Shown here: piece by piece, positions 6,896 to 63,499 of the stretch
Layout of the letters: every line of letters begins with the position of its first letter
Numbering within the stretch: the first letter of the stretch is position 1
DNA from: Raillietiella orientalis
Lineage: Eukaryota
Length of the DNA: 64,000 nt
Assembly: GCA_036172245.1 (NCBI GenBank)
Contig: JAYWIR010000054.1
Span: forward strand, 1-64,000
Reading direction: 5' to 3'
The notes under the pieces: generated by a model
What the model saw: only the letters and a program-made list of their open reading frames with translations
Databases searched by the model: none
Told to the model about the DNA's origin: nothing
Translations under genes and position numbers: made by a program

Positions 6896-7083
6896 CACCT
6901 GGGCTCGCCTGTCGCCGTCGATTACGCGTGGCCTGCTGGAACGTGAACGGGCTGCGCGACGACGGCAACAGACGGGACACGGCCGCCACCCTGCGTGACT
7001 TCGACCTGGCACTCCTGCAGGAGATCCACGTGATCACCGCGGAGAACGCCCAGGAGATCGAAAGGATCGCAGGGGGACGATTG

Positions 7084-9175
7084 ATTGTCACCCGGGTGCG
7101 CCGGGGCGTTTATTATAAACTATCCGGGAACAGGGTTCCCGGACAAAGGGGAAAACAAGAGACGAAGGGGGTAGGATCCCCGACACGCAGGTCGGTGTGC
7201 CAAAAGTCCGGAACGGGAGGGAAGGGACCACAAACACACTACTATATAAAAAAATAAAAGAAAAATATGGAGGGCAGGGGACAGGGGTCTTTGGTAAATC
7301 CGTTCCTTCCTTTCAAAACCGGCGATGGATGCCGGCGATCTCTCTCCTTACGCCCTGTGTCAGATGGGCCCACTGGGCAGCCGACGACATGTTTGCGCTG
7401 GCTAATCCGGTGGGCTGACGAAGGATGGCCAGCTTCTCCAACTCTCGGTGGGCCTTGTCGATGGCGCGGGTGCAACACACGGTTGCAACGACAGCACCCA
7501 ATGACAGGCCGCCTGGCGTGAAGAAGCGGCGCATCAACTCCCTCGCGGTGTCCCCCTGATGCAGGAGAGCTGAGGCCAGCCTCCGCCAGAATCCTAGAAG
7601 GGCACCGCAGTCCAGGAGCAGGTGCGGGAGCGTTTCCACTTCCCCGCACCGCTTACAGTTTGGGGAGACGACTCCCCCGGAAACAAGGTTCGTGCGCTGG
7701 CTGGAGTGAAAACCCCAATGCACCAGCATCATCACATCCTGCTTCCACGAAAGGGGGAACACAGAAGTGTTCAGACACAAGGGAGGAACCACAAGTTCTT
7801 CAAGGGGCACACTCAAGTGTTCGCTCCACCGAAGGAGTCCCTTCGGAACGTGGCGAGGTGTGGCGGCGTCCGCCAGCTCGCAAGTCTTCCAGCCGCCAAT
7901 AGGTCGCGTTGTTCCTGCGATGGTGCAGGCGACCTCCCATCTCGCCGGTTCGCAACTGTCATCTCTTGCCCTGAGGGCTGACAGTGCGTCTTCGAGGGGG
8001 GTGACGGCCAGGCGGGTCCACTTCTCCTGGCTGTTGCACTCCTCATCCAACGTGCAGTACGGGGAGAGGTGAGCGCAACGGAGTTCCAGGAGGGAAACAT
8101 CCTGGTGCTTTGCCCAGCCATGCAACGGTTCCTGCCGCCAGGCTTGAAAGTTCGTTGGGCGGCAGGAGATCCATTCCTGGGCGTCCAGGAGCCGATACAG
8201 CGGTTTCAAGGGGAAACCGAAGCTTCTCGTGGCGCGCTCCGTGTGCGGCCGCAGCGACAGAAGTCCATCGCTGCCTGTGCAGCGCCGCAGAAGCAGGCGC
8301 GCGGGAGCGCACCACGGAGTGGACCAAAGGTTGGCGCACAGGGCCAACATCCGAAGCTGCACCTGCAGCTCGATTCTCTCCAGCGTCAGGATGCCTAAGC
8401 CAGCATCCCGACGCGGAGCCGCTAAGTCTTTGAGGCGGATCCTGGACCTCGCAGGTCCCCACAGAGCGTTCCTCAACAGGCTGTGCGCCTGGAGCTTGGC
8501 CGAGTAGGGGGGCGGGCAAACAAAAACCAGGGGGCGCAAGAGAGGGGCAACGAAGGTGTTCCAAATCGTGGCCCGCTCCGGCAGGACGAGCCTGCCATGG
8601 TGGAACGGGCTCAGGGCATTCAAAGCCTTCCGAAGGCAGTCCGACCACACTTCCATTGGGCTGATGTTCCCCAGCGGAACGCCCAGATATTGCACGGAGG
8701 AAGCGGTCGGGATCTCCAGGCGGATCCAGTCGGACTGCCCCTCCCACGCTGCACCAATAGGTAGCACCACGCTCTTGCTCCGGTTTAAGCTCATGCCCGC
8801 TCCCCGGCGAATCAGCTCGAAGAAGACCTCGAGAATGGACGCAGGGGTTGTCGTGGGTAAAAGGAGAAGGAGGTCGTCAGCATAGGCCGCCACGGACGGC
8901 GTTCCTGGACAAGAGCTCGGCAGGTTCGCCGGCGTCAGCCTGAAAGCCCTCAGCACCAACTCAAAGAAGATCCTGAAGAGCAACGGGCTTAAACTGTTGC
9001 CCTGCCTGATGCCCCGCCGCACCGGCACGCCGTACAAGTGGCATCCGCTTAAAGAAATGGGAATGCGCGCGTTGCGCCAGCAAGCGCGCAAATAGGACAC
9101 GAGGTGCATCGGGAGACCGAGGCGTTCCAGTAGCTCCAGCAGGAGATTCTGATTTACGCAGTCGAACGCCATGTG
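7084..9175 (-). mobile_element. LINE family D, 3' part (RT from AFD to 3' end)
   Basis: ORF 7313-9172 (619 aa) with GIRQGNSLSPLLF, YADD and CKRCGEVETLPHLLLDC. Terminal hairpin at 7084-7114. Confidence 0.93.
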
Positions 9176-9269
9176 CGCTCCAGGGCGGACGTGTTTTCTC
9201 GGTGCTCCTCGTGCCAGGAAGTCTCCCCCAGTGCAAGCGTCGTGTGGTTCGGTGGTCGATCAGGTAGCG

Positions 9270-10945
9270 ATGCCTGACGCGACCACCAGGGATAACCAGG
9301 GGGCAGCGGCAACGCCGCCCCCAGAGGCGATGGAGAGCCAGGGGGCGGCGGCAACGTCACCCCCAGAGGCGATGGAGGTGGGGGCGTCCGCCCCCACAGA
9401 ATCCGTCCCCGCTGCAGCGCGGGCGTGGAGCGCCGTTGTGTCGGCGCCATCGCCTGCAGCCGTGGCGGAATTGTCGGCCTATGTGGAAGAGGGGTACAAC
9501 CCCTCATTGTTCTACAAGGTAGGCAATTTATATCCTTTAGAGAGCGCGCGCGCCTTCTCGAAGGGCATGCGCGCTCTCGATGTGAAAGAGGAGGAGCTTA
9601 GTGCTATGACCATCCGCAGCGGGAGTCAGTACGTTGAGGTCATCTGCAAACATGCAGAGCTGGCCCAACGACGGCTTAAAACCCCCGTTGTGATGGGGAC
9701 GCGAAGGCTCCTCCCCACTACGGCGGACCGCAGCATGGTGGTCCACCTGTTAGGCGTGACCGCGCGAATGCGCAAAGAACAGGTTCGCGCCGCTTTGGAA
9801 CAGTTTGGAACGGTCCACGCGCAGTGGGCGAAAGTTAGTTCTTTCGAGGACTACACGGGGCTGCAACACGGCCTCACTGCTGCGCGCGCGACCGTTCGGG
9901 AGGGCTGCATTCTTCCCCACAAACTGGTGGTCGAAGGCGAAACCGTCGACCTCTGGTATGTGGGGAAGCCGAAATACTGTGGCTTCTGCAATACGTCGGG
10001 CCACCTCAAAAAGAGGTGTCCCAATGTGCAGTGCCAAGTATGCGGCACAATGGGCCACACGAGGGAGGTGTGCTCAAAAGCAGCAGTGCGGGTGGTTTCC
10101 AAGAGAAACCTTAAAAAACGCGCCCGGCTTCTGCAGAAAAGGCTGGCGGCGAAAGCTGCCGCGAAGGCTGTGCCACCCGCGCCCAAGAACCAGGCCGCAC
10201 CCGAGGCCCCGGCGACCAACGTCGAAAAAGTTGAGGGAGCCGGCCAGGAGACTGGGTGGCAAGTGGCAACGGCCAAAAAACCAAAGAAGGAGAGGAGGAT
10301 GGAGAAGAAAATCGCCTACCAACAGAAGAAGAAAGAGCAGGGTAGCGCGATAATTAAAGAGTGCAGCGTCGTTGTCGAACGCGTTCTCGATGTTGCCGAA
10401 CGCTGCCGGAAAAACTCGCCGCTACCGACGACCTCCCCTCTGTTGAAACAGTCAACAGCGAGGGGAGCGAGCCGGCGGCGGCGTCCGTCATCGACACCAC
10501 CATCGATGACGTAGCCTTCGCGCGAGCCGCGGAGGAGCTGGCAGCTTCGTTGCAGCCAGAACCCTCCAAGGCTGGCAAGAAGGCCGTAAGGCGTCCGGCC
10601 TCCCCTCAGGAGTCCCCCACTTCCGACACCGGGGTGGAGGCTGGAAGCGCAGCCTCCGTTTCCACGGCACTGCGCAAGAAGGCTGGACGTAAGTCCACAA
10701 AGCCAAGGAAGCTCGTCTCCCCCGTTGAAGGGGAAGAGATGGCTTCCGCAAGCGAGGGTGCCATCAGCGTGGGAAACTCTCGGGACCCGTCGCCCGAGAG
10801 ACTCCCACGCGCGGACACGGAGGGGATGGAGGGGGTGGAGGCCGAACAGGTGCCTTAGGTGCCTGAGAAGGCCGAAACCCCCATGGACATCCCGCCCGCC
10901 TTGCAAGAGGAGGGCTTTCCCACACCTTAATCTTCCCAGCAGTAA
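9270..10945 (+). pseudogene. ORF1 of A-1 (frameshift near 10400, premature stop)
   Basis: CGFCNTSGHLKKRC and CQVCGTMGHTREVC. Continues in ORF 10361-10858 and ends in a TAATG overlap with ORF2. Confidence 0.85.
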
Positions 10946-13900
10946 TGCCGGGAATCCCCTCCCGCCGTCGTCTGCGCATCGCCGTTTGGAACGTGAACGG
11001 CATGACAGACGCCGGCAGGAGACGAGACATGGCCGCCCTTCTGGAGTCCTACGACCTTGCGCTGCTGCAGGAGATCCACGTGATCTCTGCAGAACAAGCG
11101 CAAGAGATCGAACGGATCTCCGGAGGGCGGCTATGGTACAGGTGTGGTAGAGCAAAAAATTGCGGTGTCGCCTACTTGCTTCGGCCAGCCATCGAGGCCG
11201 CGGCACGGGGCGTCCGGTTCGACGATCACGGTCGTGTCGGCCAGCTGACTCTTAGGTGGTCCGACTTGATCGATCTGATCGTCACGAACGTGTACGCACC
11301 GAGCGGCAAGGACCTGATGAACAGGAGGGCGATGAAAGAGTTTTTCCTTGCCCTCCGGCGAGACTGGCTGACCGAAGCAGGCGTGCGGAATGCCCATCTA
11401 ATTGCAGGAGATTTCAACGTCCGCATGAAACCAGATGATCAGAATCGCGAGCGTGACCTGGTCAACGAGGTGTGCATGGCGGTGCACACCTGTAATCTGC
11501 TGGCCAGTGCACCGGGGATGGAAGACAGCATTGACCACGTGTTTCTTGACGAGCACCTGTGCCCTCGCGTGGGCAGGCGCGGCAAGTTACCGTGCGAGCT
11601 GTCCGACCATCGCCCGCTAGTCCTCGAGATCCATCCGCGCGACAGGCGCCCCTTCTCGTCAGCGTGGCGTCTCCCAGGGGACTGGCTGAAGCTCCTTGAC
11701 GCGGCGGAACATCTCCGCACGTTCATAGGGAGTTTCAGGCTGCGGACACTCCAGGATTGGGACCGCTTCAAGCGGTCGGTCCAGGAGTTCTGCGACCAGT
11801 TCCCTTTGCACCGCCTACCTACGGGTTTTGGGACCGGGGTCCGTAACGAACGAGCCTACCTGCTGGCCCGTCGTTACGCCAGGACCCCCGACATCCGCAG
11901 GCTGGCAGAATACAAAGCGGGAGCCGAGAGGCAAGTCTGGCAGTCCGGATCGTCCAGCTTACTGTACGATCAGGGCCAGGAGCACTCGGCACCTCCCCAA
12001 ATCCACGGCCTGCTGCGAAGTTACTACTCCTCCCTGTATGCCAGGGCACCTCCGGAGAGGAACGTCTCACGACTCCTGCTTCCGGAAGGCGCTCCAGCGA
12101 TCGAGGAGGAGCAGAGAAAGACCCTCGACGAGCCTTTCACGACGGACGAGATCCTTTCGGCCATCGGAAAGCTCAAGAGGCGAAAGGCTCCAGGGGAGGA
12201 TGGCCTGTTTGCGGAGTTTTATCAAACTTTCGCGGCTAAGCTTACACCCCTGGTACAGCAACTTACCTTGCTGATACGCGAAACAGGTGACGTTCCCGCC
12301 TCGTTTCGTTCGGCAAAGGTGCGGCTCCTCGCTAAGGGAGGAAATCTGAGAAGCATAAACAACTAGCGTCCCGTCACAATAGTGAATGCGGACGCCAAGT
12401 TGCTGGCTAAGGTTTGGGCAGAGCGTCTGGGACGGGTTGCCAACATCTTTATCAGCCCGGAACAGACATATGCTGTTACCGGGCGAAGCATGGAGGCGAA
12501 TCTGTTCCACGCTTCCACCTGGCTAGAGCTCCAACATGAAAGGAGCTTGGTGCGCAGCCGGAATTTCGGGGCGTGCGCCGGCAAGGGGCTGGATGGTCAG
12601 GTGGGTCAGGGAGCCCTTGCGGTCGCAATCGACTCGCGGAAAGCATTCGATTGCGTCGACCAGAATCTCCTTCTGGAGCTTCTGGAACGCTTGGGCTTCC
12701 CGGCCTCATTAGTGGCCTATCTGCGCTCCTGCTGGCGCGACGCGCTCATCAATGTTACTTTCAGCGGGCAGACCGTGCACAAAGTGCCGGTGCGGCGTGG
12801 GATCCGGCAGGGAGACAGCCTGAGCCCCTTGCACTTCAGTACCTATTTTGAGTTGGTACTGAGAGCGTACAGGGGAACTCTGGCGCACCTGCCGCACGAC
12901 TGTGCCGGTACGCCGGCCGTTCAAGCATACGCGGACGACCTTCTGCTGCTGCTCCCTATGTCCACCCCGGCTGCGGCGGTCGAGGAGTTCTTCAACCTGC
13001 TGCATCGGGGAACCGGACTTACGGTGAACAGGGCGAAGTCGTCCGTGATGCCAGTTGGTGCGGCGTGGGCAGGGCAGCAGGACTGGGTGCGTTTGCGGAT
13101 CCCCACGGTGAGGTACTTCAAGTACCTTGGTGTGCCGTTGGGGGACTACTCCCCTGCGAAAGCGTGGTCCGGCTGCCTTCAAAAAGTAGAGACGGCGATC
13201 GGCCCGTTCCGAGGCGGCAGGTTTTTCCTGCCTGAACGGGCCGCGGTTTGGAACACGTTCGCAGCTCCTCTCTTCCGCCCCCGGCTTTTTGTTTGCCCCC
13301 CCACAGAGAGGATTAAAAAGCGGACAAAGGACCTCCTCCGTATCGCCCTTTGGGGCAACGGGAGGGCCCGAGTCCGCTTAAAGGACTTGTGCGCTCCTCG
13401 TCGGGATGGTGGTCTGGGCCTCCTGACACTGGAGCGGCTGGAGCTTCAGCTCCAGTTCCGCTTGTCGGCACTCGTTCCAGAGTTGTGGTGCACCTGTTGC
13501 TGCGTCCCTGCACGTCTCCTTCTCCAGCAAGCCACCGGCAAGACGGTACTGACGTCGTTTCTTGCACTCCGTCGCCGCGTCAACTGATGCGGACTCCAGC
13601 TACGGATGGTGACTGCGCTTTATCGGAAAAACCCAGGATTGCTCACCTTTCGCCCGTTTAACGGTAGTGCCTGGTTGCAGGAAACCGTTCGAACGTGGGG
13701 ACAGTTCGGCATGCAACGCTCCCAACAGGAACGAAGGTTCCTGTTTGGGGGTTACAGAAGTTGCACGCTCCGCGAGATCCTGGAGGATCCAAAGAAGAGA
13801 GCGTGGGCAGGAAGAACCCCCCTCGCTGCTGCGCTGCCCTCCCTGATGGAAGATCTGGACAGCGATGTTGCGGCGAAGTGGGTGGTTAAAGTAACAATCT

Positions 13901-14526
13901 CAGGAAAGGAGAAGAAGATAGGAGATCGGAAGACGGGCCAGTTAACAGACGCTGCGACCCCGAGTACGCCTCCTAATGGACTTCTGCGCTGGGGCGCGCT
14001 GCTCGATGTTCCCATTGAACATCTGAAGTGGCCCCCGGTGCTCATGAACACTTCCGCCCTCCCCTTAAAATGGCAGGAGTCGGCTCTCCTGTTGCAGCAC
14101 TGGGGACTCCCCTGCAACGCCCGCCGACACCACTGGACCTGGGGAGCGGTGGACCCCAATTGCGTCAGGTGTGGGGAACGGGAGATCCTCCCCCACCTGC
14201 TAGTGGATTGTGTTGCCCTTCGGCCCCTTTGGTTTCGCTTTGCCGCGGCCATCGGAATCCCCTGCGGCAACCCCAGTGGCGCACTGAAAGCCCTCTTCGT
14301 TGCCGACGCCCTTCGGCCAGCGGCCTCGTTAGCAGCTTTGTGCTGCCTACGCGGGATCGTCACCGCTTGGAGCAAGGCTACGGGAGGACAACGCGACCAG
14401 AGTGCCATCCAGCCAGCCTCCCAGTTCCTGAGGAGGGCGTCCCGATGGCCCCACCTGGATCCAGGAATACAGAAGGAGCTTGCCGGCATCCTGCAAAGGA
14501 TGCAACAGCCCCACCAGCGACTGTGA
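10945..14526 (+). pseudogene. ORF2 (APE endonuclease-RT-CCHC) of A-1 with two in-frame stops
   Basis: ORFs 10945-12366, 12382-13587 and 13606-14526 share one frame. Motifs WNVNG, NVYAP, GDFN, SDH, PGEDG, KAFD, YADD and CVRCGEREILPHLLVDC. Confidence 0.93.
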
Positions 14527-14743
14527 TCCCTTCCCTTACCCTCCCAACTTTTCTTTTCTTTTTTGTTTTGTTTTTTTGTTTTTCCCCCTTCCCCCTGCTG
14601 CCGTGGTGGACCGCACCGGTCTGCGAACCGGTGACCCGGCAGGCTCTGTTTCTTCGTGCGTGGCTGGAGCAATGGTCCAGCCACCGCACGTCTTTGTAAA
14701 AGTTTATTTTACAATAAACGCCCCGGCGAAATCCGGGTGAAAA

Positions 14744-15655
14744 TCGAACGCCCTGCGGGGATCGACCGCGACCGCCAAGGCACCCGGCGCTTCCTCAGGC
14801 CGAATACAGCGACGCCTAGCCCTGGCAGCCGCAGATGCGGTTGCCTGGCTGTTGTGCGTCACGCGACGTTGCAGCTCGAGCCACGTGCACGCGAAGAACA
14901 GGTTCGCCTCCATGGACAGCCCGGGAACAGCGTAAGTCTGCTCCGGACTTACCACGGATCCAGCGTTCCTGCCTAGGCGCGCGACCCACAGCCTGGAGAA
15001 CAACTTGACGTCCGCCTTCACCAAGGTGATGGGACGCCAGTTGCTTAAATGGCGCATGCCTCCGCCTTTCGACATGATACGCACCCTTGCTGAGCGAAAC
15101 GAGGCCGGGACATTGCCCGTCTCTCGCATCAGCGCATTAAGCCTCAGCACCAGGGGGATGAGTTCCGCCGTGGAGCACTGGAAGAACTCCGCAGGCAGAC
15201 CATCCTTAACTGGCGCCTTGCGCTTCTTGAGGCTCGCTATGGCGGAAGACACTTCTTCCGCCGTGAAGGGCAAGTCAAGAGTGGCGCGTTCCTCCTCGTC
15301 GACCGCAGGGGAATCCGCCGGCAGAAGCAGCTCCGAGAGACTGCGTTCTGTCGGCTCCCTAGCATACAACGAGGAGTAGTAGCGCTTTAGGAGGCGGCGA
15401 ACTTCGGCCGCGCCCGAGCACTCCAGGCCCTGGTCGTCGAGCAGACAAGCCGCTCCTGACTGCCAGACCTTGCCCTCGGCCTTGGCCTTGTACTCCGCAA
15501 GGTACCGGACGTTCGGGCATCGGGAGAATTGGCGGGCCTGCAGAAACTCTCTGCTGTTCGCCACGCTTTCCCCGAAGCCACGGGGAAGCTGCCGCAAAAG
15601 GAACCGGCTGCAGAACTCGCAGACCGATCTTTTCAGATCGTCCCAGTCCACGAGC
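14744..15655 (-). mobile_element. LINE family D, middle part (linker to RT AFD)
   Basis: DWDDLKRSV...WRPITLV...AVAVDPRRAFD. Joins 9175 across the A-1 TSD. Confidence 0.9.
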
Positions 15656-18600
15656 GAGAGCGGACGTGTTTTTGTTTCGCTCTTGAGCGTTTGTTGTTTT
15701 CTTTTTTTTCTTTTTTTTCTTGTTGTGCCAGTGGATTCGGTGGTGGCTAGGCAGCAATGCCTGGGACCACCATTAATGTTAAGGAGGGGGCGACGTCTAT
15801 GTCGCCTCCTGAATCAATGGATGTGGGGGCAACCGCCCCCACAGAAGCGACTTACTTGCTAGGGAGAAGCTGGAGTTCCGTGGCTGCGGCGCCAACGCAA
15901 GCGGCTGCGGCTGAGTTAAAAGCCTACATGGAGGAGGGGTACAATCCCCCTCTACTCTACAAGGTAGGCAACCTTTACTCCTTTGAGAGTGCACGCGCTT
16001 TCTCGAAAGCGATGCACTCCCTCAAAGTACCCCAGGAGGAGCTCTTGGCGATGACCATCAGGAGTGGTGGACAGTACGTTGAGGTGATTTGCAAAGAAGC
16101 ATGTCTTGCCCAGCGTCTGCTCCGCACACCTGTTCCTTTAGGGAATCGCGGCTCCTCCCCATCACGGAGGATAGATCTATTGTGATCCATCTCCTCGGAA
16201 TCACCTTCCGGATGGCCGAAGAGGCTGTTCGAAAGGAACTAGTTAAATTTAGGACTGTCCACGCGTTGTGGAAAAGGCCGACTCCGTTTTGGGAGTACGA
16301 TCTCCTGAATTGCGGTATGGCTTCCGCGCGCATGACGGTCGGCGAGGGTTGCTTCCTACCAAACAAGCTGGAGGTCAACGGCGAACCCGTTGACATCTGG
16401 TATGATGGTAAGCTGCATTTCTGCGGGCATTGCAGCACTTCAGGTTACCTGAAAAAAAGGTGCCCCCACTTTCCGTGCAAGCAATGCAAGCAACCCGGGC
16501 ACACTCTTCCAGTGTGCCCGCAAAATGAAGTCCGCGTTGCGTCCGCACGGAATGCGAAGAAGCGCGCGGCGAGAAAAAGACGTGTTCAGGCAGCCCGAAA
16601 GAGAGCCGCCGCTGGAAAAACAACTGTCGTTCCCCAGGTGAAGGTCAGCTCTGAGATCTTATGAAACTCGGACAAGGTCGAGGAAAACGGCCAGGAATCT
16701 GGATGGCAGGTAGTAAAATCCAAGAGGCAGAAAAGCCTCAAGTAACCAAAAAAAAATGTCGCGAAACGCAGCGAGAATTTGCCGCTTCGCGAAAATATCA
16801 AACGCTTCTCTGTCGTCATCAAGCGCATTCCTGCGGTCGAACAGAGCGGCAAAATTGCACTTGTCGCTGCCGACTTTCAGCCCTTTAGCAAATTAATGCC
16901 GGAGGCTATCGACCCGGCGGTGGCATCCGTCGTCGAACGCATGATCGACGACATCGCCTTTGAGCGAGCGGCGGAGGATATCGCTGCGTCCTTGCAGCGT
17001 CCCCTTAAATCCGCGAAAAAGGCCTTGAGGCGTCCGAACTCGATCAAGAAGTCCGAGATTCCGAACTCTTACGCAGAGGCGGAAAACAGCCTGTCGCATC
17101 GCGGCCTCCCACGCGAAGGCCAATCGCACGAAGAAGGCTACCCGCAAAATTATCCCGTCCGTGGAAAAGGGAGAGATAATTGAGGGAAGCGTGCGTGCGA
17201 ATAAAGTGGGGAACTCCGGGGACTCTCTACGAGAGGTAACCCTAAGCTGCGACGCCGGAGGGAGGGAAAGGGTAGAGTCTGTGCCCAAGGTGCTTCAAGT
17301 GCCTGAGATGGCCGCGGTCCCCTTACTCGTCCCTCCCACCTGTCCGTTGACAGGTGCTGAAACGCCACGTTCCTAGCCTTAATGCCTGGAATCGCCTCTT
17401 GCCGCCGTCTGCGAATTGTCTGTTGGAACGTCAACGGGCTAAGCGACGACGGCAAGAGACGAAACGTGGCCTCCGCTCTGGCATCGTTGTACCTGGTGCT
17501 CCTGCAAGAGATCCACGTTATCTCCGCAGATCAAGCAACGGAGATCGAGCGTACCTCGGGTGGACGGCTGCTGTGGCGTTGCGGCACCGTTAAATCTTGC
17601 GGTGTCGCGTTCCTGCTTCGTCCAGCTATCGAGGCTGCGGCAAAGGGCGTACGGTTCGATAGTGCCGGTCGCGTCGGGCAGTTGACCATCAGGTGGTCCG
17701 ACTCCATCGATCTGGTCATTACCAACGTGTACGCCCCAAGCGGCAGCGACGCGCTAAGGGCAAAGGCAAGGAGAGATTTCTTCCTTACCCTGAGGCGCGA
17801 ATATCTGGACGAAGCGGGAGTGCGCAAAGCGCACCTAATCGCTGGTGACTTTAACCTGCGCCTGCTGTCAGGTGCGTCCGACACACTTCGGGAGCGCGTG
17901 AACGAGCTGTGCGCAGAGATGCACACGCGCAACTTGTTCGCGGGAGATCCAGAAATGGCCGACAGCATAGATCACGTGTTTCTTGACCAACATCTATGCT
18001 CACGCGTGGGCAGGCGCGGCAAGTTACCGTCGGAACTGTCGGACCATGACCGGATCGTACTCGGGGCGCGTCCACGCGATAGGGGTCCGCCGTCATCTGC
18101 GTGGCGCTTACGGGGGAACTGACTGAAACTTCCGGAAGCCGCGGAGCATCTCCGAGGATCCATACGAGCTTTCAGCTTGCAGACGCTTCAGGACTGGGAC
18201 CGCTTCAAGCGCTCGGTCCGGAATTTTTGCGACGAGTTCCCTATGAACCTCCTGCCTGCCGGGCTTGGTAAAAGCGTACGTAACGAGAGATGGTATTTAC
18301 AATCTCGTTGTTACGCGCGAACACCAGACGTACGCAGGATAGCCGAATATCATGCGGGAGCCGAGAGGCAGGCGTGGCAATCCGGGTCGGCCAGCTTACT
18401 GGACGACTAGGGTTTGGAGAACTCGGCCCCCGCCCAGGTAAAAGGCTTATTAAAAAAATTCTTCTCCTCCCTGTACGCGCGCGCTTTACCGAAACGGGAT
18501 GTCTCGCGACTTCTTCTTCCGGAAGGCGCTCCGGCGATCAAGGAGGAAGATAGAAAGACCCTCGACGAGCCTTTCACGATGGGCGAGATCATCTCGGCCA

Positions 18601-33500: not shown

Positions 33501-34108
33501 CCTGGAAGACTAGTGAGTTGGCGGACGCCGCCACTCCTCGTGTTACTGCAAAGGGACTCCTCCGGTGGGCAGAAGAACTTGCTGTCATCCCCGAAGAACT
33601 TGTAGTCCCTCCACAGTGTATGGACAGTTCGCTGCTCCCCCTTGCTTGGAAACAAGCCGTGCTGCTTTTCGTTCACTGGGGTTTTCAGTGCAACGAGCGT
33701 TGGCATCGTGACTCCGGGGGACTTGCGTCTGCGAACTGCGTTCGGTGCGGATCGACGGAGTCGATTCCGCACCTACTTCTGGACTGCGGTGTCCTACAAG
33801 GACTGTGGCGTAGGCTGGCAACAGCACTAATGCTTCCCGTGGACACCGCAAGAGACTTGCTGCGGCGATTCTTCGCGCCAAGCGGGCTATCTACAAGCGC
33901 AAGGATTGCAACCATCGGTTGCATACGCGCGATAGCTTCCGTCCGCCAGGCGTTGGTAATCAACAAACAGCACCAAGAGGTAATCAGCAAAGCATCCTTC
34001 TACATGGGAGCATCCGCTAGATGGCCTCATTTGACAGAGGAGACAAAGAGGAATCTCGCCGCAATACACCGCCGGTTTACACACCCTCATCAGCGGCCAA
34101 CCCGGTGA
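30516..34108 (+). pseudogene. ORF2 of H-1 (stop at 31467-31469, frameshift near 32855)
   Basis: WNVNG, GDFN, SDH, PGEDG, DLHKAFD, YADD and CVRCGSTESIPHLLLDC. Confidence 0.92.
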
Positions 34109-34421
34109 TCATTGCCCTACCCTCCATAAACTAAAATTGTATTTTCTTTTTACACCCGCGTCCCCATAGGCTCCGGAACATTTTAGGTGCTCATCGTATA
34201 AATCCCCGTGAGTACGGAGCCTAACCAAAAACCCGTTACCCTTCCCTCCAGTTTTTGATTTTTGTTTGTTTCCCCTCATTCCCCCCACGCTGCGAGCGGT
34301 TTGTTTACCAGGCCTGCGTGCCGGTAATTTTTCTGTGTTCTCTGTCGTTCTATTGGTTGGGGACATTGTCCCTGACCAGTTTATTATTATTAATAAACGC
34401 CCCGGCGTGACCGGGTGATAA

Positions 34422-36480: not shown

Positions 36481-36484
36481 GAAC

Positions 36485-39400
36485 CCACGCCATGTTACGG
36501 CAGCCTGCCAAGGCCGAGAAGAAGGCCTTGAGACGACCGGCAACGGTGAAGGGCCCGGAAAATTCCGAGTCCGAAACCGAAGCCGGTTGTTCTACTTCCG
36601 CAGCCGTGCCGAAGAGGAAGGCTGGCAAGAAGACCTGTTGCCCGAGACGGGTCGCCCCTCCGCAGGTGGAGGAGGCCATGTCCTCGGGCACGGAGGAGGA
36701 GGCAATGTGCGTCGCGCCACGCGACCCCTCTCCGATCCGTGTCTCGGAAGCCGGCCCCATGGAAGTCGCTGTGGACGACGTGCTCCCGTGTGAGCAGCCG
36801 ACCGTCGTCACGGCCGCCAACAAGCCGCCTCCCGAAAGGGAGGAGGCCGCCTCCACCCCAGCATAAGTACACCAATGCGTGGGCTCGCCTCCTGCCGCCG
36901 CTTGCGCATCACCTGTTGGAATGTCAACGGGTTGCGCGACGACGGAAAGAGGCGAGATGTAGCCGCCATACTGCGAGACTTCGACCTGGTGCTCCTGCAA
37001 GAGACGCACGTTCTCCGACCGGGAGATGTACAGGAAATCGAAAGAATCGCGGGAGGGCGGCTACTGTGGAGGAACGGAACGGACAACTCCTGCGGAGTGG
37101 CCTTTCTGCTAAAGCCAACCGTCGACAACTCACTGCGCAGTGCACGGGTCGACGGGGATGGTCGAGTTGGGCAGCTTGTGTTCAAGTGGTCCGACTCGAT
37201 CGTCCTCGTAGTCACGAACCTGTACGCTCCGGTGAGCAGCCACAGGGCCGAGGAACGCACTGCGTTCTTCGAAACCTTGCGGCGAGACTGGTTGGCCGAA
37301 GCAGGCGTGCGAAGGGCGCACCTCATTGCGGGCGATTTCAATCTCCGCCTGCTGGCAGGTGCGCCCAGCGGACGAGCACAGCTGGTCAACGAGTTGTGCG
37401 CAGCCATGCATGCGCGCAACTTGTTGGCCGGCGATGCCGGGAGAGATCGGAACATCGACCACATTTTCCTCGACAACCACCTGTGCACGCGGGTGGGAAC
37501 TCGAGGAACGCTCCCGGCAGAGCTGTCCGACCATCCACGGCTCGTGCTCGAGTTACATCCTCGCAATAAGGGCCCTCCCCTGAAAACATGGCGCCTGCCA
37601 GGGGATTGGTTGCGCCTCGCAGGAGCGGCGGAACATCTACGCTGTTTCCTGCGAGGATTCCAGCTTCACACGCTTGCGGACTGGGACGAAATGAAGTGCT
37701 CAGTCCGTGAGTTTTGCGACCAGTTTCCCCTGGAACGTTTTCCGCCGGGCTTCGGTGAGGGTGTCCGGAACGAGCGGGCGTACCTACAGGCGCGCCGTTA
37801 TTCCCGGCGTCCCGACGTCCGTCGCCTGGCTGAATTCAAGGCTGAGGCGGAGAGGCAGGCCTGGCAGTCAGGCTCGGCCTGCCTGCTGGATCATCAGGGC
37901 CAAGAACGCTCCAGCCCAGCCCAGGTAAGCCGCATCGTGCGGGAGTTTTATTCCTCCTTGTACGCGCCACTGACACCTGAGCGCCCTTTCGCGCAGCGCC
38001 TGCTGCCGGATGGCGCTCCCGCGCTCAAGGAGGAGGACCGTTCCAGATTGGCGGAACCGTTCACGATGGCGGAGATCATCTCCGCCATCAACAGGCTCAA
38101 GAGAAGGAAGGCACCAGGGGAGGACGGCCTGCCCGCGGAGTTTTACCATCGCTTCGCGCCAGAGCTGGCCCCCCTGGTGCTCAGGTTAAGTACTCTGATC
38201 CGCGAACACGGCGAAGTTCCCGCCTCGTTCTGGTCAGCAAAAGTACGTCTCCTGCCGAAATCAGGAGACTTACGCAACATCGGCAACTGGCGTCCCATCA
38301 CAGTAGTGAATGCGGACGCAAAGTTGTATGCCAAGTTGTGGGCTGAGCGTTTGGGGCGGGTGGCCGCTTCCGTGGTGAGTCCCGAGCAGACCTATGCTGT
38401 TCCCGGACGAACCATGGAGGCCAACCTGCTCCTCGGCAGCTCATGGTGGCAGTTGCGACAACGCGTTGCACAGGACGGTCAAGGGAGCCTCGCGCCCCCC
38501 TCTGACCAAGAAGATCGGGCAGAGGGTGGGATGGACTCGGCGGGAGCCTTTGCCGTCGCGGTCGATTTGCACAAAGCATTCGACTGCGTCGACCAGGATC
38601 TGCTTCTGGAGCTCCTGGAACGCATGGGTTTCCCTGCCGTGCTTCAATCTTACCTTGGCTCCTGCTGGCGCAACGCGTCAATCAATATTCGTTTCAGCGG
38701 TCGGCACGTGTACGGCGTGCCCATACGCCGCGGCATCCGGCAGGGTGACAGCCTGAGCCCCTTGCTCTTCAGCATCTACTTCGAGTTGGTGCTGAGGGCA
38801 TACAGGGTAACTCTGGCAACCCTGCCGAGCTCGTATGCCGGCACGCCTGCCGTGTCGGCCTATGCAGACGATCTTCTGCTGCTGCTTCCCGGGTCCACCC
38901 CGGCGAGTGCGCTCGAGGATTTCTTCGAGTTGCTGCGCCGCGGGACGGGCCTCGAGGTGAACAGGGCGAAGTCGTCCATGGTCTTCGTCGGTTCGGCGTG
39001 GGCTGGACGATCGGATTGGATACGCTTGGGGATCCCCACGGACAGGTGCTTGAAGTACCTAGGCGTTCCGATGGGGGACTTCTGCGCAGCAGAAGCCTGG
39101 TCCGACCGTCTCCAAAAGGCAACGTTGGCGACCGGTCCGTTCCAAGAAAGCAAGCTCTACTTGCAGGAACGGGCCGCGGTGTGGAACGCGTTTGCGGCCC
39201 CCCTTCTTCGCCCCCTACTTTTTGTGTGCTCCGCCCCTTACTTCATTTGTAAACGAGCAGCGGGCCTCCTGAGGACAGTCCTTTGGGGCAAAGGGAGGTC
39301 CCGTGTGAGGCTCAAAGGCTTGTGCGCTCCACGTAAGGACGGAGGACTTGGCGTTCTTACGCTGGAGCGCATTGAACTACAACTCAGGTTCAGGACTCTC

Positions 39401-40693
39401 GCCCTTGCGGCGGAATTGTGGGACACGCCTTGGTGCGTTCCAGCACGCCTCCTGGCCCAACGAGCCTGCGGATTCGACGGACTTTTGTCGTTTCTGCTGG
39501 CACGCGACCGCAGAGAAGCACACGGCTGCTTAATCCTGCGTCGCATGGAAGTTGCGGTACGGGAGAACGCCTGGATCTCCTGCAGCCCAGGGAACTACTC
39601 TGCATGGCTGCACGAGTCAGTGTCCACCTGGGTAAAGATCCACGTTTCGGCGGGCACAAGAAACACTTGCCTGCAAAGGCACGCCCGCTGGAAACTGCAG
39701 GAGATCGTGCAGTCCCACGAAAAGCGCATGTGGGCTTTGATAACCCCCCTTGCCCCAGTCCTGCCCCTCCTCATCGACGCCAGGGACAGTAGGGAGCTTG
39801 GGAAATGGAACGTGTCCTGCACTATTGGAGGCAGGACACAAACGATTATGGCGTGGACATCTCGGCAGCTTGCGGACGCTGCGACGCCGAGAGTCCCGCC
39901 CAACGGAATTCGACGCTGGGGCGAGCTAGTCGGACTATCTCCGGAGGAGATGAAGTGGCCCCCGGCTTCCTGGAACAGTGGATCCCTCCCCCTGAAATGG
40001 CAGGATGTGGCGTTGCTTGTGGTCCTCTGGGGACTTCCATTCAAAGCACGCCTTCATCACACAACCCGGGGGGCTGTGGATCCTTATTGTGACCGGTGCG
40101 GGGAAAAAGAGACCTTCCCCCACCTTCTCATCGAGTGCAGTGCCATCCGCCCTTTATGGGATCGCCTTACGGCGATCCTGGACATGCGCGGATGCGGCCC
40201 AAAGGACGTTTTTAGGCTCCTCTTCCGTAGTGACGCCTTGTCCCCCCCCTCTTCTGTAGCAGTCCTCTGCTGCATTCGAGGGATCGTGGCGGCTTGGAAC
40301 GCCACCAGAAGAAGACGTCAGCCAACCGGCAACGCCTTACGGTTCACTCGCCTATTCGTCCGAGACGTCTGCAAGTGGCGCCACTTGGGCGCAGAGAGGA
40401 CTCAGCTTGTACGGATCCTAAATAGGATCTAGAGGACCTATCCGCGCGCACGGTGATCCCCTCCCTGCCCTCCCATTCCCGAAACGTTTGCTCCCTCCCA
40501 TACTTCAACTATTTGTTTGTTTTTTGTTTTTTTTGTTTTTTCTTTCCCAACCCCCGCGGATCGGATGGACCTCTCCGGCATAGCGCCGGTAAATACCAAG
40601 CTGTTTTGTAGTGGTGGACCTTTGGGTTCACCACGCGACAATCCATTGTAATTTTATTCTTTTGAATAAATGCCCCGGCATATCTGGGTGAAA
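36485..40693 (+). mobile_element. LINE family C, copy 1 (ORF1 tail, intact ORF2, 3' UTR)
   Basis: ORF1 C-terminus (KKALRRPA...) to 36866, then ORF2. 3' hairpin at 40665-40693. Confidence 0.93.
36875..40432 (+). CDS. Intact LINE ORF2 polyprotein: APE endonuclease + reverse transcriptase + CCHC finger
   Basis: 1185 aa with WNVNG, LLQET, NLYAP, GDFN, IDH, SDH, PGEDG, WRPI, DLHKAFD, GIRQGDSLSPLLF, YADD, YLG and CDRCGEKETFPHLLIEC. Confidence 0.96.
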   Translation: MRGLASCRRLRITCWNVNGLRDDGKRRDVAAILRDFDLVLLQETHVLRPGDVQEIERIAGGRLLWRNGTDNSCGVAFLLKPTVDNSLRSARVDGDGRVGQLVFKWSDSIVLVVTNLYAPVSSHRAEERTAFFETLRRDWLAEAGVRRAHLIAGDFNLRLLAGAPSGRAQLVNELCAAMHARNLLAGDAGRDRNIDHIFLDNHLCTRVGTRGTLPAELSDHPRLVLELHPRNKGPPLKTWRLPGDWLRLAGAAEHLRCFLRGFQLHTLADWDEMKCSVREFCDQFPLERFPPGFGEGVRNERAYLQARRYSRRPDVRRLAEFKAEAERQAWQSGSACLLDHQGQERSSPAQVSRIVREFYSSLYAPLTPERPFAQRLLPDGAPALKEEDRSRLAEPFTMAEIISAINRLKRRKAPGEDGLPAEFYHRFAPELAPLVLRLSTLIREHGEVPASFWSAKVRLLPKSGDLRNIGNWRPITVVNADAKLYAKLWAERLGRVAASVVSPEQTYAVPGRTMEANLLLGSSWWQLRQRVAQDGQGSLAPPSDQEDRAEGGMDSAGAFAVAVDLHKAFDCVDQDLLLELLERMGFPAVLQSYLGSCWRNASINIRFSGRHVYGVPIRRGIRQGDSLSPLLFSIYFELVLRAYRVTLATLPSSYAGTPAVSAYADDLLLLLPGSTPASALEDFFELLRRGTGLEVNRAKSSMVFVGSAWAGRSDWIRLGIPTDRCLKYLGVPMGDFCAAEAWSDRLQKATLATGPFQESKLYLQERAAVWNAFAAPLLRPLLFVCSAPYFICKRAAGLLRTVLWGKGRSRVRLKGLCAPRKDGGLGVLTLERIELQLRFRTLALAAELWDTPWCVPARLLAQRACGFDGLLSFLLARDRREAHGCLILRRMEVAVRENAWISCSPGNYSAWLHESVSTWVKIHVSAGTRNTCLQRHARWKLQEIVQSHEKRMWALITPLAPVLPLLIDARDSRELGKWNVSCTIGGRTQTIMAWTSRQLADAATPRVPPNGIRRWGELVGLSPEEMKWPPASWNSGSLPLKWQDVALLVVLWGLPFKARLHHTTRGAVDPYCDRCGEKETFPHLLIECSAIRPLWDRLTAILDMRGCGPKDVFRLLFRSDALSPPSSVAVLCCIRGIVAAWNATRRRRQPTGNALRFTRLFVRDVCKWRHLGAERTQLVRILNRI

Positions 40694-40699
40694 ACGTGG

Positions 40700-41177
40700 C
40701 CGTAGTGACGCCTTGTCCCCCCCCTCTTCTGTAGCAGTCCTCTGCTGCATTCGAGGGATCGTGGCGGCTTGGAACGCCACCAGAAGAAGACGTCAGCCAA
40801 CCGGCAACGCCTTACGGTTCACTCGCCTATTCGTCCGAGACATCTGCAAGTGGCGCCACTTGGGCGCAGAGAGGACTCAGCTTGTACGGATCCTGAATAG
40901 GATCTAGAAAACCTATCCGCGCGCACGGTGATCCCCTCCCTGCCCTCCCATTCCCGAAATATTTGTTCCCTCCCATACTTCAACTATTTGTTTGTTTTTT
41001 GTTTTTTGTTTTTTGTTTTTTTTCTCTTTCCCATCCCCCGCGCATCGGATGGACCTCTCCGGCATACCGCCGGTAAATAACAAGCTGTTTTGTAGTGGTG
41101 GACCTTTGGGTTCAACACGCGACAATCAATTGTAATTTTATTCTTTTGAATAAATGCCCTGGCATATCCGGGTGAAA
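40700..41177 (+). mobile_element. Tandem 5'-truncated family C copy (~480 bp 3' end)
   Basis: Near-identical repeat of 40225-40693, including the terminal hairpin. Confidence 0.9.
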
Positions 41178-41179
41178 AC

Positions 41180-42897
41180 GTGGCCGCTTCCGTGGTGAGT
41201 CCCGACCAGACCTACGCTGTTCCCGGACGAACCATGGAGGCCAACCTGCTCCACGCCAGCTCATGGTGGCAGTTGGGACAACGCGTTGCTCAGGACGGTC
41301 AAGGGAGCCTTGCGCCCCCCTCTGACCAAACAGATCGGGCAGAGGGTGGGATGGACTCGGCGGGAGCCTTTGCCGTCGCGGTCGATTTGCACAAAGCATT
41401 CGACTGCGTCGACCAGGATCCCCTTCTGGAGCTCCTGGAACGCATGGGTTCCCCTGCCGTGCTTCAATCTTACCTGCGCTCCTGCTGGCGCATCGCGTCA
41501 ATCAATATTGGTTTCAGCGGCCGGCACGTGTACGGCGTGCCAGTGCGTCGCGGCATACGGCAGGGTGACAGCCTGAGCCCCTTGCTCTTCATCATCTACT
41601 TCGAGTTGGTGCTGAAGGCATACAGGGTAACTCTGGCAACCCTGCCGAGCTCGCGTGCCGGCACGTCTGCCGTGTCGGCCTATGCAGACGATCTTCTGCT
41701 GCTGCTTCCCGGGTCCACCTCGGCGAGTGAGCTCGAGGATTTCTTCGGGTTGCTGCACCGCGGGACGGGCCTGGAGGTGAACAGGGCGAAGTCGTCGATG
41801 GCTTGTGTTGGCTCGGCGTGGGCTGGACCGTCGGACTGGATCCGCTTGGGGATCCCCACGGGCAGGTGCTTCAAGTACCTTGGCTTTCCGTTGGGGGACT
41901 TCTGTGCAGCAGAATCTTGGTCCGAACGTCTCCAAAAGGCAGCGTTGGCGATCAGTCCGTTCCAAGAAAGCAAGTTCTACTTTCAGGAACGGGCCGCGAT
42001 GTGGAACGCCTTTGCGGCCCCCCATCTTCGCCCCCTACTTTTTGTGTGCCCCGCCCCTTATTTTGTCCGAAAAAGAGCAGCGGGCCTCCTGAGGACAGTC
42101 CTTTGGGGCAAAGGGAGGTCCCGTGTGAGGCTCAAAGACTTGTGCGCCCCACGTAAGGACGGAGGACTTGCGTGAACTACAACTCAGATTCAGAACGCTC
42201 GCCCTTGCAGCGGAACTGTGGGACACGCCCTGGTGCGTTCCAGCACGCCTTCTGGCCCAACGTGCCTCTGGACATGGCGGACTCTCTTCGTTTCTCTGGG
42301 CTCGCGACCGCAGACAGGCGCATTGCGGCTTTCACCTGCGTCGCATGGCCGTTGTGGCTCGGAAGAACGCACGGATCTCCTGCCTTCCTGGGAACCACTC
42401 GGCATGGCTGCACGAGTCAGTCTCCTCTTGGGAAAAGATCCACGTACCGGCGGGTACAAAGAACACTTGCCTGAAAAGGCACGCCCGCTGGACGCTGCCG
42501 GAAATCGTGCAATCCCACTATCAGTTTCTGTGGGTCTTTATAACCCCCCTTGCTCCAGTGCTGCCCTTTTTAGTAAACGCCAGGAAGAGCAGAGAGCAGG
42601 GAAAATGGACAGTGTCCTGCACCATAGATGGTAGGACACGAAAGATCGAGGCATGGACATCTCGGCAGCTAGCGGACGCTGCGACGCCGAGTGTCCCGCC
42701 TAACGGAATTCGACGCTGGGGCGAGCTACTCGAACTATCTCCGGAGGAGATGAAGTGGCCCCCGGCGTCCTGGAACAGTGTATCCCTTTCCTTGAAATGG
42801 CAGGAGGTGGCGTTGCTGGTTTTACGCTGGGGTCTACCCTACAAAGCATGCCTCTCTCACTGCACACGGGGGGCTGTGGATCCTTATTGTGACCGGT
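41180..42897 (+). mobile_element. Third tandem family C copy (RT fragment, truncated at both ends)
   Basis: Homologous to 38360-40097 but more diverged. KAFD and YADD present. Ends at DPYCDR. Confidence 0.9.
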
Positions 42898-43551
42898 CCG
42901 CAGGAGAGGCGCGCGACTTTATCGATCGGATTCGCGCGCCTCCACATCGCGTGCACTGTGGCGAGCACCTCGAGCGCAACAATGATGTCGCGGTCCGTTA
43001 TTCTCGGCCGAATGCCCGAGAGCTGGACTACGAACGATTGGTCCAGGGACGTGGGGACGACCTCCTTACCCCTGATTTTAAGGGGCGTTCGCAGTAGGCG
43101 TTGTACGAGGGCTGCATCTTTGCAGTGCACCTCCCAATGGCCTACCGCGCTTACTGGCATAATTGCCAGGAGATCGTCCTTTCGGACGCATACGCTTTCC
43201 AGCTCGCTCCAGAGCTAATTGCCCGTCCCATCCCGGTACGCGGCACTGACCTTGTAGGCCAGAGGGGGGTTGTAGCCGCTCGCGGCGTACGCCCGCAGCT
43301 CTGCCTCGTCGGTTGAGGCTCCGTGGGCCGCCTCTGCCTTAGCAGCAACGGCGAAACTTCTCGCTGGAGACGAGGTACGATCGGTGGAGGCTTCCACTCG
43401 TCACGAAGGTCCTGCGACGCAGGGGGATTCCTCCACCTCCCTTTTGGGAGCACTGGCTTCATTTTTAAATGAAAAATCACACCACACCCAAAAGGAACAG
43501 CCGCAAAAAGAACACCAAAGACGGAGCGTAAGAATGCACGTCCGAACAATA
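42898..43551 (-). mobile_element. LINE family D 5' end and ORF1 N-terminus
   Basis: 5' motif ttcggacgtgcattcttacgctc at ~43545-43523. Encodes ELRAYAASGYNP, WEVHCKDAALVQRLLRTPL...RLSCG. Confidence 0.85.
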
Positions 43552-43810
43552 GGGAGGCCGGCTATGGTACAGGTGTGGGAGACCGAAAACTTTGCGGTGT
43601 GGCCTACCTGCTTCGGCCAGCGGTCGAGGCCGCTGCTCGGGGCGTGCGGTTCGAGATGACGGTCGTGTCGGCCAGCTGACTCTCAGGTGGTCCGACTCGA
43701 TCGATCTGATCGTCACGAACGTGTATGCACCGAGCGGCGCGGACCTGATGGGCAGGAGGGCGAGGAAAAAGTTTCTTCTTGCCCTCCGGCGCGACTGGCT
43801 GACCGAAGCA
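43552..43810 (+). pseudogene. A-type endonuclease fragment starting at GGRL
   Basis: GGRLWYRCG...CGVAYLLRP...NVYAPSG...RRDWLTEA. Confidence 0.85.
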
Positions 43811-43814
43811 TGGG

Positions 43815-45321
43815 AGGCTCCTCCTGCCGGAGCAGGCCGCGATATGTAACACCTTCGTTGCCCTCCTCTAGCGCCCCCTGTTTTTTGATTGCCCGCCCCC
43901 CTACTCGGCGAATCTCTAGGCGCACATCCTGTGCAGGAACACTCTATGGGGTCCTGCGAGCTCCAGGATACCCCTCAAAGACTTGGCGGCTCCGCGTCGG
44001 GATGCTGGCTTAGGCATCCTAACGCTGGAGAGAATCGAGCTGCAGGTGCAGTTTCGGATGTTGGCCCTGTGTGCCAACCTTTGGTCAACTCCGTGGTGCG
44101 CTCCTGCGCGCCTGCTTTTGCGGCGTTGCACCGGCAACGACGGACTTCTGTCGCTGCGTCCGCACACGGAGAACTAAACAACAAGTTTGGGTTTCCCTTT
44201 GAAACCTCTCTACCGGCTACTGGCAGCCCAAGAATGCATCTCCTGCCGCCCAACTAACTTTCAAGCCTAGCGGCAGGAAACGTTGCATGACTGGGCAAAG
44301 CACCAGGATGTTTCACTCCTGGAACTCCGTTGCGCTCACCTCTCCCCGTATTGCACTGTGGATGACGCCTGCAACAGCCAGGAGAACTGGACCGGCCTGG
44401 CCCTCACCCCCCTCGCCGACGCACTGTCAGCCCTCAGGGCAAGAGATGACAGCTGCGAACCGGCGAGATGGGAGGTCTCCGGCACCATTCCAGGAACAAC
44501 ACGACCTATTGGCGGCTGGAGGACTTGCGAGCTGCAGACGCCGCCACGCCTCGCCACATCTCGAAGGGACTCCTTCGGTGGAGTGAACACTTGAGTGTGC
44601 CTCCCGAAGAACTCGTGGTCCCTCCCTCCTGTTTGAACACTTCTGTGTTCCCCCTTTCGTAGAAGCAGGACGTCATCATGCTGGTGCATCGGGGTTTTCA
44701 CTCCAACCTGCGGACGAACCGTGTTTCCGGGGGAGTTGACACCCCAAACTGTATGCGGTGCGGGGAAGTTGAAACGCTTCCGCACCTGCTTTTGGACTGC
44801 GGTGCCCTCCAAGGACTTTGGCGGAGGCTGGCCTCAGCTCTCCTGCACCAGGGGGACACCGCAAGAGACTTGATGCGCCGCTTTTTTACGCCAGGCGGCC
44901 TGTCTTTGGGTGCTCTCGTTGCAACCGTGTGTTGCACCCGCGCCATCGACAAAGCCCACCGAGAGTTGGAGATGCTGGCCATCGTTCGTCAGCCCATCGG
45001 ATTAGCCAGCGCAAGCATGTCGTCGGCAGCCGAGTGGGCCCATCTGCCACAGGACGCAAGGAGAGAGATCGCGGGAATCCATCGCCGGTTTTCAAAGGAA
45101 GGAACGGACTCACCAAATACCCCTGTCCCCTGCCCTCCATGTTTTTATTTTGATTTTTTATAGTAGTGTATTTGTGGTCCCCTCCCTCCCGTTCCGGACT
45201 TTCGCCATACCGACCTGCGTGTGGGGGATCCCACCCCCTTCGTCTGTTGTTTTCCAATTTGTCCGGAAACTCTGTTCCTGGATAGTTCTTAATAAACGTC
45301 CCGGCGCACCCGGGTGACAAA
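43815..45321 (+). mobile_element. LINE family D 3' part (second copy), followed by target remnant and a D 5' stub (45336-45363)
   Basis: Inverted homolog of 7084-8590. CMRCGEVETLPHLLLDC. Hairpin at 45292-45321. Confidence 0.9.
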
Positions 45322-45363
45322 AAGCCGCCCTCCTCCATTGTTCGGACGTGCATACTTACGCTC

Positions 45364-63497: not shown

Positions 63498-63499
63498 CT

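Follow-up and report, generated by a model that had tools for sequence, protein, structure and literature searches.

In a 64-kb stretch of genomic DNA from Raillietiella orientalis (assembly GCA_036172245.1, contig JAYWIR010000054.1, positions 1 to 64,000; hereafter the window), which by its coding content represents a nest of L1/Tx1-like long interspersed nuclear elements (LINEs), we found that copies of one LINE family, termed D, end at the same short coding motif of sibling elements. The predicted D target is the host-sense 11-mer GGRGGNCGRYT, which encodes the residues GGRL (amino acids (aa) 86-89 of open reading frame (ORF) 2) in the endonuclease domain of the interrupted LINE. Within this one window, site-specific antisense targeting of the GGRL codons by D is well supported by the sequence comparisons, and the original prediction to this effect is supported by four junctions at three target copies. 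We consider it probable that D is a site-specific retrotransposon without long terminal repeats (non-LTR), of the apurinic/apyrimidinic endonuclease (APE) type (L1/Tx1-like), acting on this stretch of 11 nucleotides (nt), that the target is regenerated at both ends of an insertion, and that later entry of a D-type element can give a tandem. Coordinates of the features are collected in Table 1.

Family D junctions at the GGRL codons

D-type termini were located on the GGRL 11-mer in 4/4 cases in the window (two 3' and two 5' junctions), always antisense and with an offset of 11-13 nt, and the three target copies hit differ in sequence (gggggacgatt, ggaggccggct and ggagggcggct). The D 3' end GCGCACCCGGGTGACAA (terminal strings …CGGCGCACCCGGGTGACAA and AATAAACGYCCCGGCGCACCCGGGTGACAA) is present at 7085-7101 on the minus strand and at 45304-45320 on the plus strand. 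At the first of these the flank of the host, element B, comprises ORF2 aa 13-90 up to position 7083, and a single base (a, 7084) lies between its in-frame GGRL codons and the D 3' end, which reads in reverse complement from 7085, in agreement with the junction originally predicted here. Two copies of the D-type 5' 17-mer ATTGTTCGGACGTGCAT are present in the window (43534-43550, minus strand; 45337-45353, plus strand) where 0.11 are expected, and none of 100 shuffled sequences reached two. A D 5' end had also been predicted to abut a GGRL-like target of an A host at 43551; the position was correct, but a filler (ag) intervenes, and the A-like, target-bearing host starting at 43553 is only a 258-nt fragment that is fused to a D 3' part at 43809/43810.

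Host flanks are antisense to D at both kinds of junction and lead to ORF2 aa 90 at the 3' junctions and to aa 87 at the 5' junctions. D 5' junctions are placed at the far edge, and D 3' junctions at the near edge, of one stretch of 11-13 nt, an offset that fits a target-site duplication of this length. The target pattern adjoining the D ends can be written as RAGCCGNCCYCC (duplex form ...ATCTCCGGAGGGCGGCTATGGTAC...; C1-type counterpart GGCGGAACGCT). As the three targets differ and the two D 3' parts are only 89.7% identical, the D insertions were separate events.

Eight of the 11 recognisable copies of the GGRL region of ORF2 were uninterrupted, three of these with the exact 11-mer, so the site is not saturated. 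The string AGCCGCCCTCC at 45323-45333, which separates a D 3' end from a D-type 5' end, is the exact reverse complement of the GGRL codons in three uninterrupted hosts (11122, 37052 and 52548); this 11-mer has four exact matches in the window compared with 0.11 expected, and 0/100 shuffles reached four. An invariant D terminus as the source of this spacer could be ruled out by the differing flanks: next to the D 3' end at 7085 the codons have the form found in host B, and the corresponding string at 43553 runs on into 258 nt of host, which makes the spacer host-derived. Where the junctions lie, how they are oriented, that the spacer comes from the host and that empty sites exist can all be seen in the window sequence.

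Family D is defined by its two 3' parts, 7085-8599 and 43809-45320 (a 1515-nt match of 89.6% identity that ends with the D 3' end; 1357/1512 positions identical, 89.7%). The minus-strand copy that starts at 7085 is interrupted by a nested A element, flanked within D on both sides by the 9-nt TCGAACGCC, and by a nested X element with junctions at aa 295/296. Its ORF at 7313-9259 (-) matched PF00078 (E 1.6e-13), and CCHC-like strings are visible in the translation of its ORF1. Joined together, the D pieces give a full-length unit of ~5.7 kb, similar to the family C element C1 (28521-34422). D ORF2 is closest to family C (58-73%), as is the ORF1 behind the 5' head at 43550 (54% and 49% aa identity compared with 30-40% for most other families), and D is probably a sister of family C. 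The 27-nt head (alternative string ATTGTTCGGACGTGCATNCTTACGCTC) represents a true LINE 5' end with the CGCTC-like motif that was found at nine starts. We infer that it belongs to a D element because its junction has the offset that a target-site duplication needs, because ORF1 and ORF2 are both closest to C, and because the ORF1 break matches: the fragment 42876-43550 ends 0-7 nt from the ORF1 position at which the D piece ending at 23147 begins. At 23147 the 3' end of an element Y abuts D ORF1, and a related copy at 63484-64000 reads straight across this break point.

The tandem junction at 45304-45363 and its possible origins

At 45304-45363 the order is D 3' end, aa, target 11-mer, tcc and D-type 5' head. 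The original prediction had described 45311-45363 as a D 3' end, antisense GGRL codons and a second D; the order holds, with aa and tcc flanking the target, but the second D amounts to a 27-nt head only. Likewise, the arrangement proposed as an element-target-element footprint of repeated insertion is present and has a parallel in family F (see below), while repeated insertion of D itself is plausible only, this tandem being incomplete. The two head-plus-target copies (43524-43563 and 45323-45363) form an inverted repeat of 41 nt with 90% identity. Likeness of the two heads stops after CGCTC (+27), beyond which they are unrelated: the head at 43550 runs into a 5' untranslated region (UTR) and ORF1, the head at 45337 into non-LINE DNA. 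At the other side the head-plus-target likeness stops at precisely the position of the D 3' junction (after ggct), which favours insertion over random duplication. The 2.1 kb that follow the head (45364-47446) have a GC content of 0.507 compared with 0.59-0.61 for LINE bodies and showed no LINE protein similarity at E <= 0.01. Pfam searches of the 16 ORFs of 45446-47938 returned nothing credible, Rfam and transfer RNA searches of 45364-47446 gave 0 matches each, and the only tandem repeats near the junction were trivial ones.

Upstream of the tandem the pieces assigned to D do not form one simple insertion. For the composite minus-strand copy 7085-43550 this could be ruled out, as its two targets differ at 4/11 positions. 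Given the mismatched host flanks we assume a later rearrangement: two D copies may have recombined ectopically, or both may have been broken at the same point in ORF1. The joint 43809/43810, with a 2-nt overlap (ca), connects aa 170 of the A-like ORF2 with aa 779 of D; the product may be a derivative left by a deletion, or a chimera that arose from template switching and has a D-type 3' end. At another joint (42868-42880, 9-13 shared nt) plus-strand ORF2 (aa 1108) meets minus-strand D ORF1. Neither joint is an insertion junction; both point to deletion, template switching or recombination in the nest.

Several points weigh against site-specific insertion and stacking of D. The D junctions number only four and come from one window alone, and 2-3 filler bases (ag, 43551-43552; tcc, 45334-45336) set the D 5' ends apart from the target. 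No intact D endonuclease domain is found in the window: the sole D copy that spans the region reads ...ACWNV/CFDEEGRVGQLV at ~21800-21930 (-) and lacks ORF2 aa ~45-119, a stretch that holds catalytic motifs of the endonuclease as well as the GGRL site of this copy. The composite D ends on different host copies (gggggacgatt of B and the A-like ggaggccggct), and the 5' neighbour of the D 3' part at 43809-45320 is a sense A-like fragment and not the expected antisense host. The downstream member of the tandem is a D-type head followed by unrelated DNA, and the 41-nt inverted repeat makes an inversion or a patch duplication possible, although an inversion would, by our reasoning, still leave one tandem junction.

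A first alternative, which we regard as rather unlikely but as the strongest of the competitors, is that the unit at 45337 is a non-autonomous or chimeric retrocopy that may have acquired a D-type head when the reverse transcriptase (RT) switched template from another RNA to the 5' end of D RNA, and that was placed at the same target by the D machinery. The end of the likeness right after CGCTC, the following 2.1 kb with lower GC and without LINE coding similarity or Pfam, Rfam or transfer RNA matches, and the adjoining A-like fragment fused to a D 3' part, a similar chimera, are all consistent with such an origin. However, a complete unit cannot be delimited, since no plus-strand 3' end (AATAAA and hairpin) is found before 58547, and a later insertion or deletion at +27 would explain the same facts.

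Alternatively, D might be site-specific and the tandem might stem from rearrangement, by inversion or gene conversion via the 41-nt inverted repeat or by ectopic recombination between D copies. The inverted orientation and 90% identity of the two head-plus-target copies, the two non-insertional joints nearby and the mismatched flanks of the composite D, which indicate that recombination did occur in the vicinity, lend some weight to this explanation, but overall we judge it improbable. The likeness ends exactly at the D 3' junction, as predicted by D insertion and not by a random breakpoint; inverting 43551-45336 would, as we reason, leave one tandem and one canonical junction; the fillers differ (ct and tcc); and F/F' represents true stacking with an intact repeated 8-mer.

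That the coincidences reflect chance, assembly error or homologous recombination at conserved motifs is very improbable: recombination might be favoured at conserved motifs, where diverged copies resemble each other most, and the assembly is repeat-rich with no junction information from the reads of sequencing run X1, but homologous recombination does not yield complete antisense element termini (5' motif, 3' hairpin), nested insertions carry clean duplications such as TCGAACGCC around A, four families with repeated junctions agree on their site within 1-4 codons, and by our estimate the chance that three further junctions in a 5.9-kb element share a single 13-nt interval and a single orientation is ~1e-9.

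For site-specific insertion of D at the GGRL codons we infer that nicking is specified by D's own endonuclease and that events would take the following order. The endonuclease would nick the host sense strand right after ...GGCT(A) (site GGAGGGCGGCT/ATGG), in host B 1-2 nt further. The freed 3'-OH would prime reverse transcription on the D RNA, ending in the conserved hairpin and GTGACAA(A), and priming from a sense-strand nick would set D in antisense orientation relative to the host. The second strand would be cut 11-13 nt off, before GGAGG, and this distance between the cuts would duplicate the target at both sides of D. Each insertion would restore the target at both ends, and a later D-type RNA could enter beside the earlier copy, with the order 3' end, 11-nt target and 5' end as the outcome. 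No complementarity was visible at junctions of D, C or A, and we therefore rejected the idea that the RNA 3' end selects the target by pairing with the nicked strand. Presumably a protein recognises the site, as shown for R1Bm (PMC1919474).

Landing sites and termini across the nest

Twenty junctions were mapped to ORF2/ORF1 coordinates, and each family with at least two junctions of the same kind keeps one site. There are four such families, with agreement within 1-4 codons. A copies are 85-89% alike compared with 67% for their host flanks, and TCGAACGCC represents a 9-nt duplication around the A copy at 9171-14743. Family C is present with two diverged full-length copies whose duplications, TTTCAAT (7 nt) and TTTCAACGTTCGCCT (15 nt), differ and therefore belong to separate insertion events. 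E elements are 93% alike compared with 62% for their hosts; an E 3' end (minus strand, 50630/50631) abuts the GFGE codons at aa 321, which suggests a duplication of 11-12 nt as for D. The D case would then be one instance of a habit of the clade, in which each subfamily appears to have its own base-precise target in conserved codons of its siblings.

Stacking was also found in family F. There, F' is a 5'-truncated copy of ~480 nt with 95% identity to F, and the 8-mer CGTGGCCG on which both stand is native to the host ORF2 (aa 521). F/F' is a clean and independent tandem stack on a repeated 8-mer and shows that stacking happens in this nest.

Other families were represented by single junctions: the family B 5' end (4785/4800) lies antisense at ORF2 aa ~513, the family X junction pair (15650/15661 and 21190/21191) antisense at ORF2 aa 295/296, and the Y 3' end (23147/23148) in sense orientation at ORF1 aa ~179. 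Twin priming was considered for Y(-) and Z(+) and rejected, as the ORF2 portions of the two (aa 319-1212 and 523-1108) have a stretch in common over which they are ~91% identical but not the same.

Table 1. Position and description of D junctions, D pieces and landing sites in the window
Feature	Position	Strand or orientation	Description
Occupied D target, host B	7072-7083	+	GGRL codons gggggacgattg of ORF2, in frame (...QEIERIAGGRL); host broken here
Junction in host B, host-sense	7072-		...atcgca / gggggacgatt / ga + ttgtcacccggg (D 3' end, reverse complement)
D 5' junction, host-sense	43535-		...ccgaacaat (D 5' end, reverse complement) + ag / ggaggccggct / atggtacagg...
Tandem junction, host-sense	45351-45308 (reverse complement)		...ccgaacaat + gga / ggagggcggct / tt + ttgtcacccggg
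Intact host A, host-sense			...atctcc / ggagggcggct / atggtac...
Uninterrupted (empty) target ggagggcggct, host A	11122-11132	+	Same at 37052-37062 and 52548-52558; diverged empty sites in four further copies
D 3' piece	7085-9170	-	Hairpin and AATAAA, 3' UTR, ORF2 aa ~595-1207 with RT; ends at left TCGAACGCC copy
D ORF2 aa ~296-597	14744-15650	-	Same element beyond nested A (9171-14743); right boundary approximate
D ORF1 C-terminal part (zinc knuckles), ORF2 aa 1-44 and 120-295	21191-23147	-	Same element beyond nested X (~15651-21190)
D-type 5' fragment	42876-43550	-	Head ATTGTTCGGACGTGCATTCTTACGCTC (43524-43550), 5' UTR, ORF1 aa 14-187; left boundary ambiguous (42868-42880)
A-like ORF2 fragment, aa 87-170	43553-43810	+	258 nt; starts exactly at target ggaggccggct (43553-43563); 89.6% to 11122-11379
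D 3' part	43809-45320	+	ORF2 aa 779-1179, 3' UTR, hairpin
Spacer	45321-45336	-	aa tail, target remnant agccgccctcc (45323-45333, antisense GGRL), filler tcc
D-type 5' head	45337-45363	+	27 nt, 26/27 identical to 43524-43550
Unexplained 2.1 kb	45364-47446		Unique in window; GC 0.507; no ORF >123 aa inside
Family A site	9162-9170 and 14744-14752; 2448/2449	antisense	Two hosts; ORF2 aa 595/597, codons for KAFD (motif A of the RT); nick follows TTCGA
Family C site	28514/28521 and 34422/34423; 52853/52863 and 58577/58578	sense	Two hosts; ORF2 aa 182-186, GDFN codons of endonuclease
Family D site		antisense	Three different target copies; ORF2 aa 87-90
Family E site	5' ends at 26088/26099 and 1595/1609	antisense	Two hosts; ORF2 aa 318/319, GFGE codons
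F stack	40694-41186	+	F 3' end, CGTGGCCG (40694-40701), F' (to 41178), CGTGGCCG (41179-41186), host ORF2 from aa 521

Nearly all of the window consists of diverged copies of one type of non-LTR retrotransposon on both strands, with repeat families 60-94% alike and a GC content of 0.51-0.63. The layout comprises an ORF1 with zinc knuckles and an ORF2 that encodes an APE endonuclease, an RT and a putative zinc-binding tail. A tblastn map with the ORF2 at 36794-40432 and two ORF1s as queries resolved ~28 fragments. This ORF2, the longest (1212 aa), matched Exo_endo_phos (the APE endonuclease; PF03372, E 1.4e-16) and RVT_1 (PF00078, E 1.3e-22), with zf-RVT at 23.7 bits below the Pfam cut-off of 27.5; the ORF1 at 52310-53944 scored 22.7 for zf-CCHC (cut-off 20.8).

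Eleven element 3' ends from all families (e.g. 45291-45320, 34392-34422 and 14713-14743) share the form AATAAA-YG-YCCCGGC-loop-CCGGGTGA, with a conserved 5-bp hairpin (CCCGG/CCGGG) followed by GTGA and 2-5 mostly-A bases at 11/11 ends; none of them carries a long A run. The hairpin is nearly invariant and consequently shows no covariation. Nine element 5' ends (e.g. 28521, 9186 and 26099) begin with CGGACGTG, 8-11 nt and a CGCTC-like motif, with ORF1 next where present; two starts depart from this form, one with CAAACGTG and one ending in GTGCTC. The shared termini likely represent cis signals, the 3' hairpin for 3' processing or recognition by RT and the 5' motif for transcription start.

Database relatives of the proteins comprised seven proteins at E <= 1e-10 with 22-29% identity, of which only a 'ribonuclease HI' and a flatworm 'huwe1' protein carried names, and L1-like clusters were matched in a protein atlas. 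A metagenome scan with the strict 3' motif gave 0 matches, and the relaxed motif gave three loci (L001-L003), none with LINE protein similarity, which we regard as chance matches. In sequencing run X1 (share 0.07) 88 short contigs were 85-99% alike at a threshold of 85% likeness, and a D-junction piece was not among the eight listed, which is no evidence either way; the read depth of this run is not usable as copy number.

Relation to known systems and significance

Tx1L and Tx2L of Xenopus, of the Tx1 group of the L1 clade, are APE-type LINEs with sequence-specific insertion, and Tx1L has a fixed target sequence inside another transposable element, a DNA transposon repeat. The elements described here resemble Tx1L as probable APE-type members of the L1 clade with a fixed site inside another transposable element, but the target here is a coding motif of sibling LINEs, and we know of no description of a network of mutually targeting families in the Tx1 group. 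Homing endonuclease genes, group I introns and inteins are selfish elements that reside in the most conserved codons, where the host can hardly escape by mutation. Targets in conserved codons are shared with these systems, which however rely on double-strand breaks and repair and target cellular genes, whereas here the route would be target-primed reverse transcription and the targets are mobile elements.

Known targets of site-specific LINEs are ribosomal DNA, telomeric repeats, microsatellites and small-RNA genes. Unlike for R1 and TRAS/SART, the multicopy target here is the sequence coding for catalytic domains of other LINEs. As in these elements, site and orientation would be fixed by sequence-specific APE nicking, which is deduced here from the junctions. 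For R1Bm, specific cutting of both strands of the 28S target by the endonuclease is described (PMC1919474), and target-specific APE LINEs are characterised as using conserved multicopy sequences (PMC3706591).

Closest by architecture are Zepp and ZeppL of green algae, which according to the passages covered form LINE-only L1 clusters as new elements insert into copies already in place, giving nests and tandem arrays of 3' ends (PMC8226300, Craig et al.); nested Zepp clusters at 61% GC are likewise reported (PMC3446292, Blanc et al. 2012). The window is similarly nested, with 51-63% GC and stacked 3' ends (F/F'). This likeness is one of cluster architecture. The elements differ in that they end in a hairpin and 2-5 A, whereas Table 3 of PMC3747384 gives (A)n tails for Zepp and L1-1_CR, and in that the window holds several diverged subfamilies with base-precise targets in conserved codon motifs, some of them antisense, while no precise Zepp target is given in the passages covered. 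A literature search that did not extend to the original descriptions of Zepp (Higashiyama 1997, Yamamoto 2003), which may bear on this claim, found no report of LINE subfamilies with targets in conserved codons of their siblings.

Somewhat tentatively, with the odds slightly against it, the window may be read as the product of a guild of related LINE subfamilies, in which each endonuclease has a different base-precise target in the conserved codons of its siblings (GGRL, GDFN, KAFD, GFGE) and the elements insert into and inactivate one another, thereby building LINE-only islands. If true, sequence-directed mutual parasitism and not chromatin targeting would build LINE-only islands such as the centromere-like Zepp-type clusters, and stacking on regenerated targets would lead to their tandem 3'-end arrays, which would provide a concrete mechanism for the growth of such clusters. 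The targets would be motifs that a host element cannot lose without dying, an ecological strategy different from that of known site-specific LINEs, and insertion into a safe harbour and the knock-out of a competitor would be achieved in a single step. A genome with several sister endonucleases that differ in their 11-nt specificity would further offer a natural series on change of APE targets, which matters for retrotransposon-based gene insertion.

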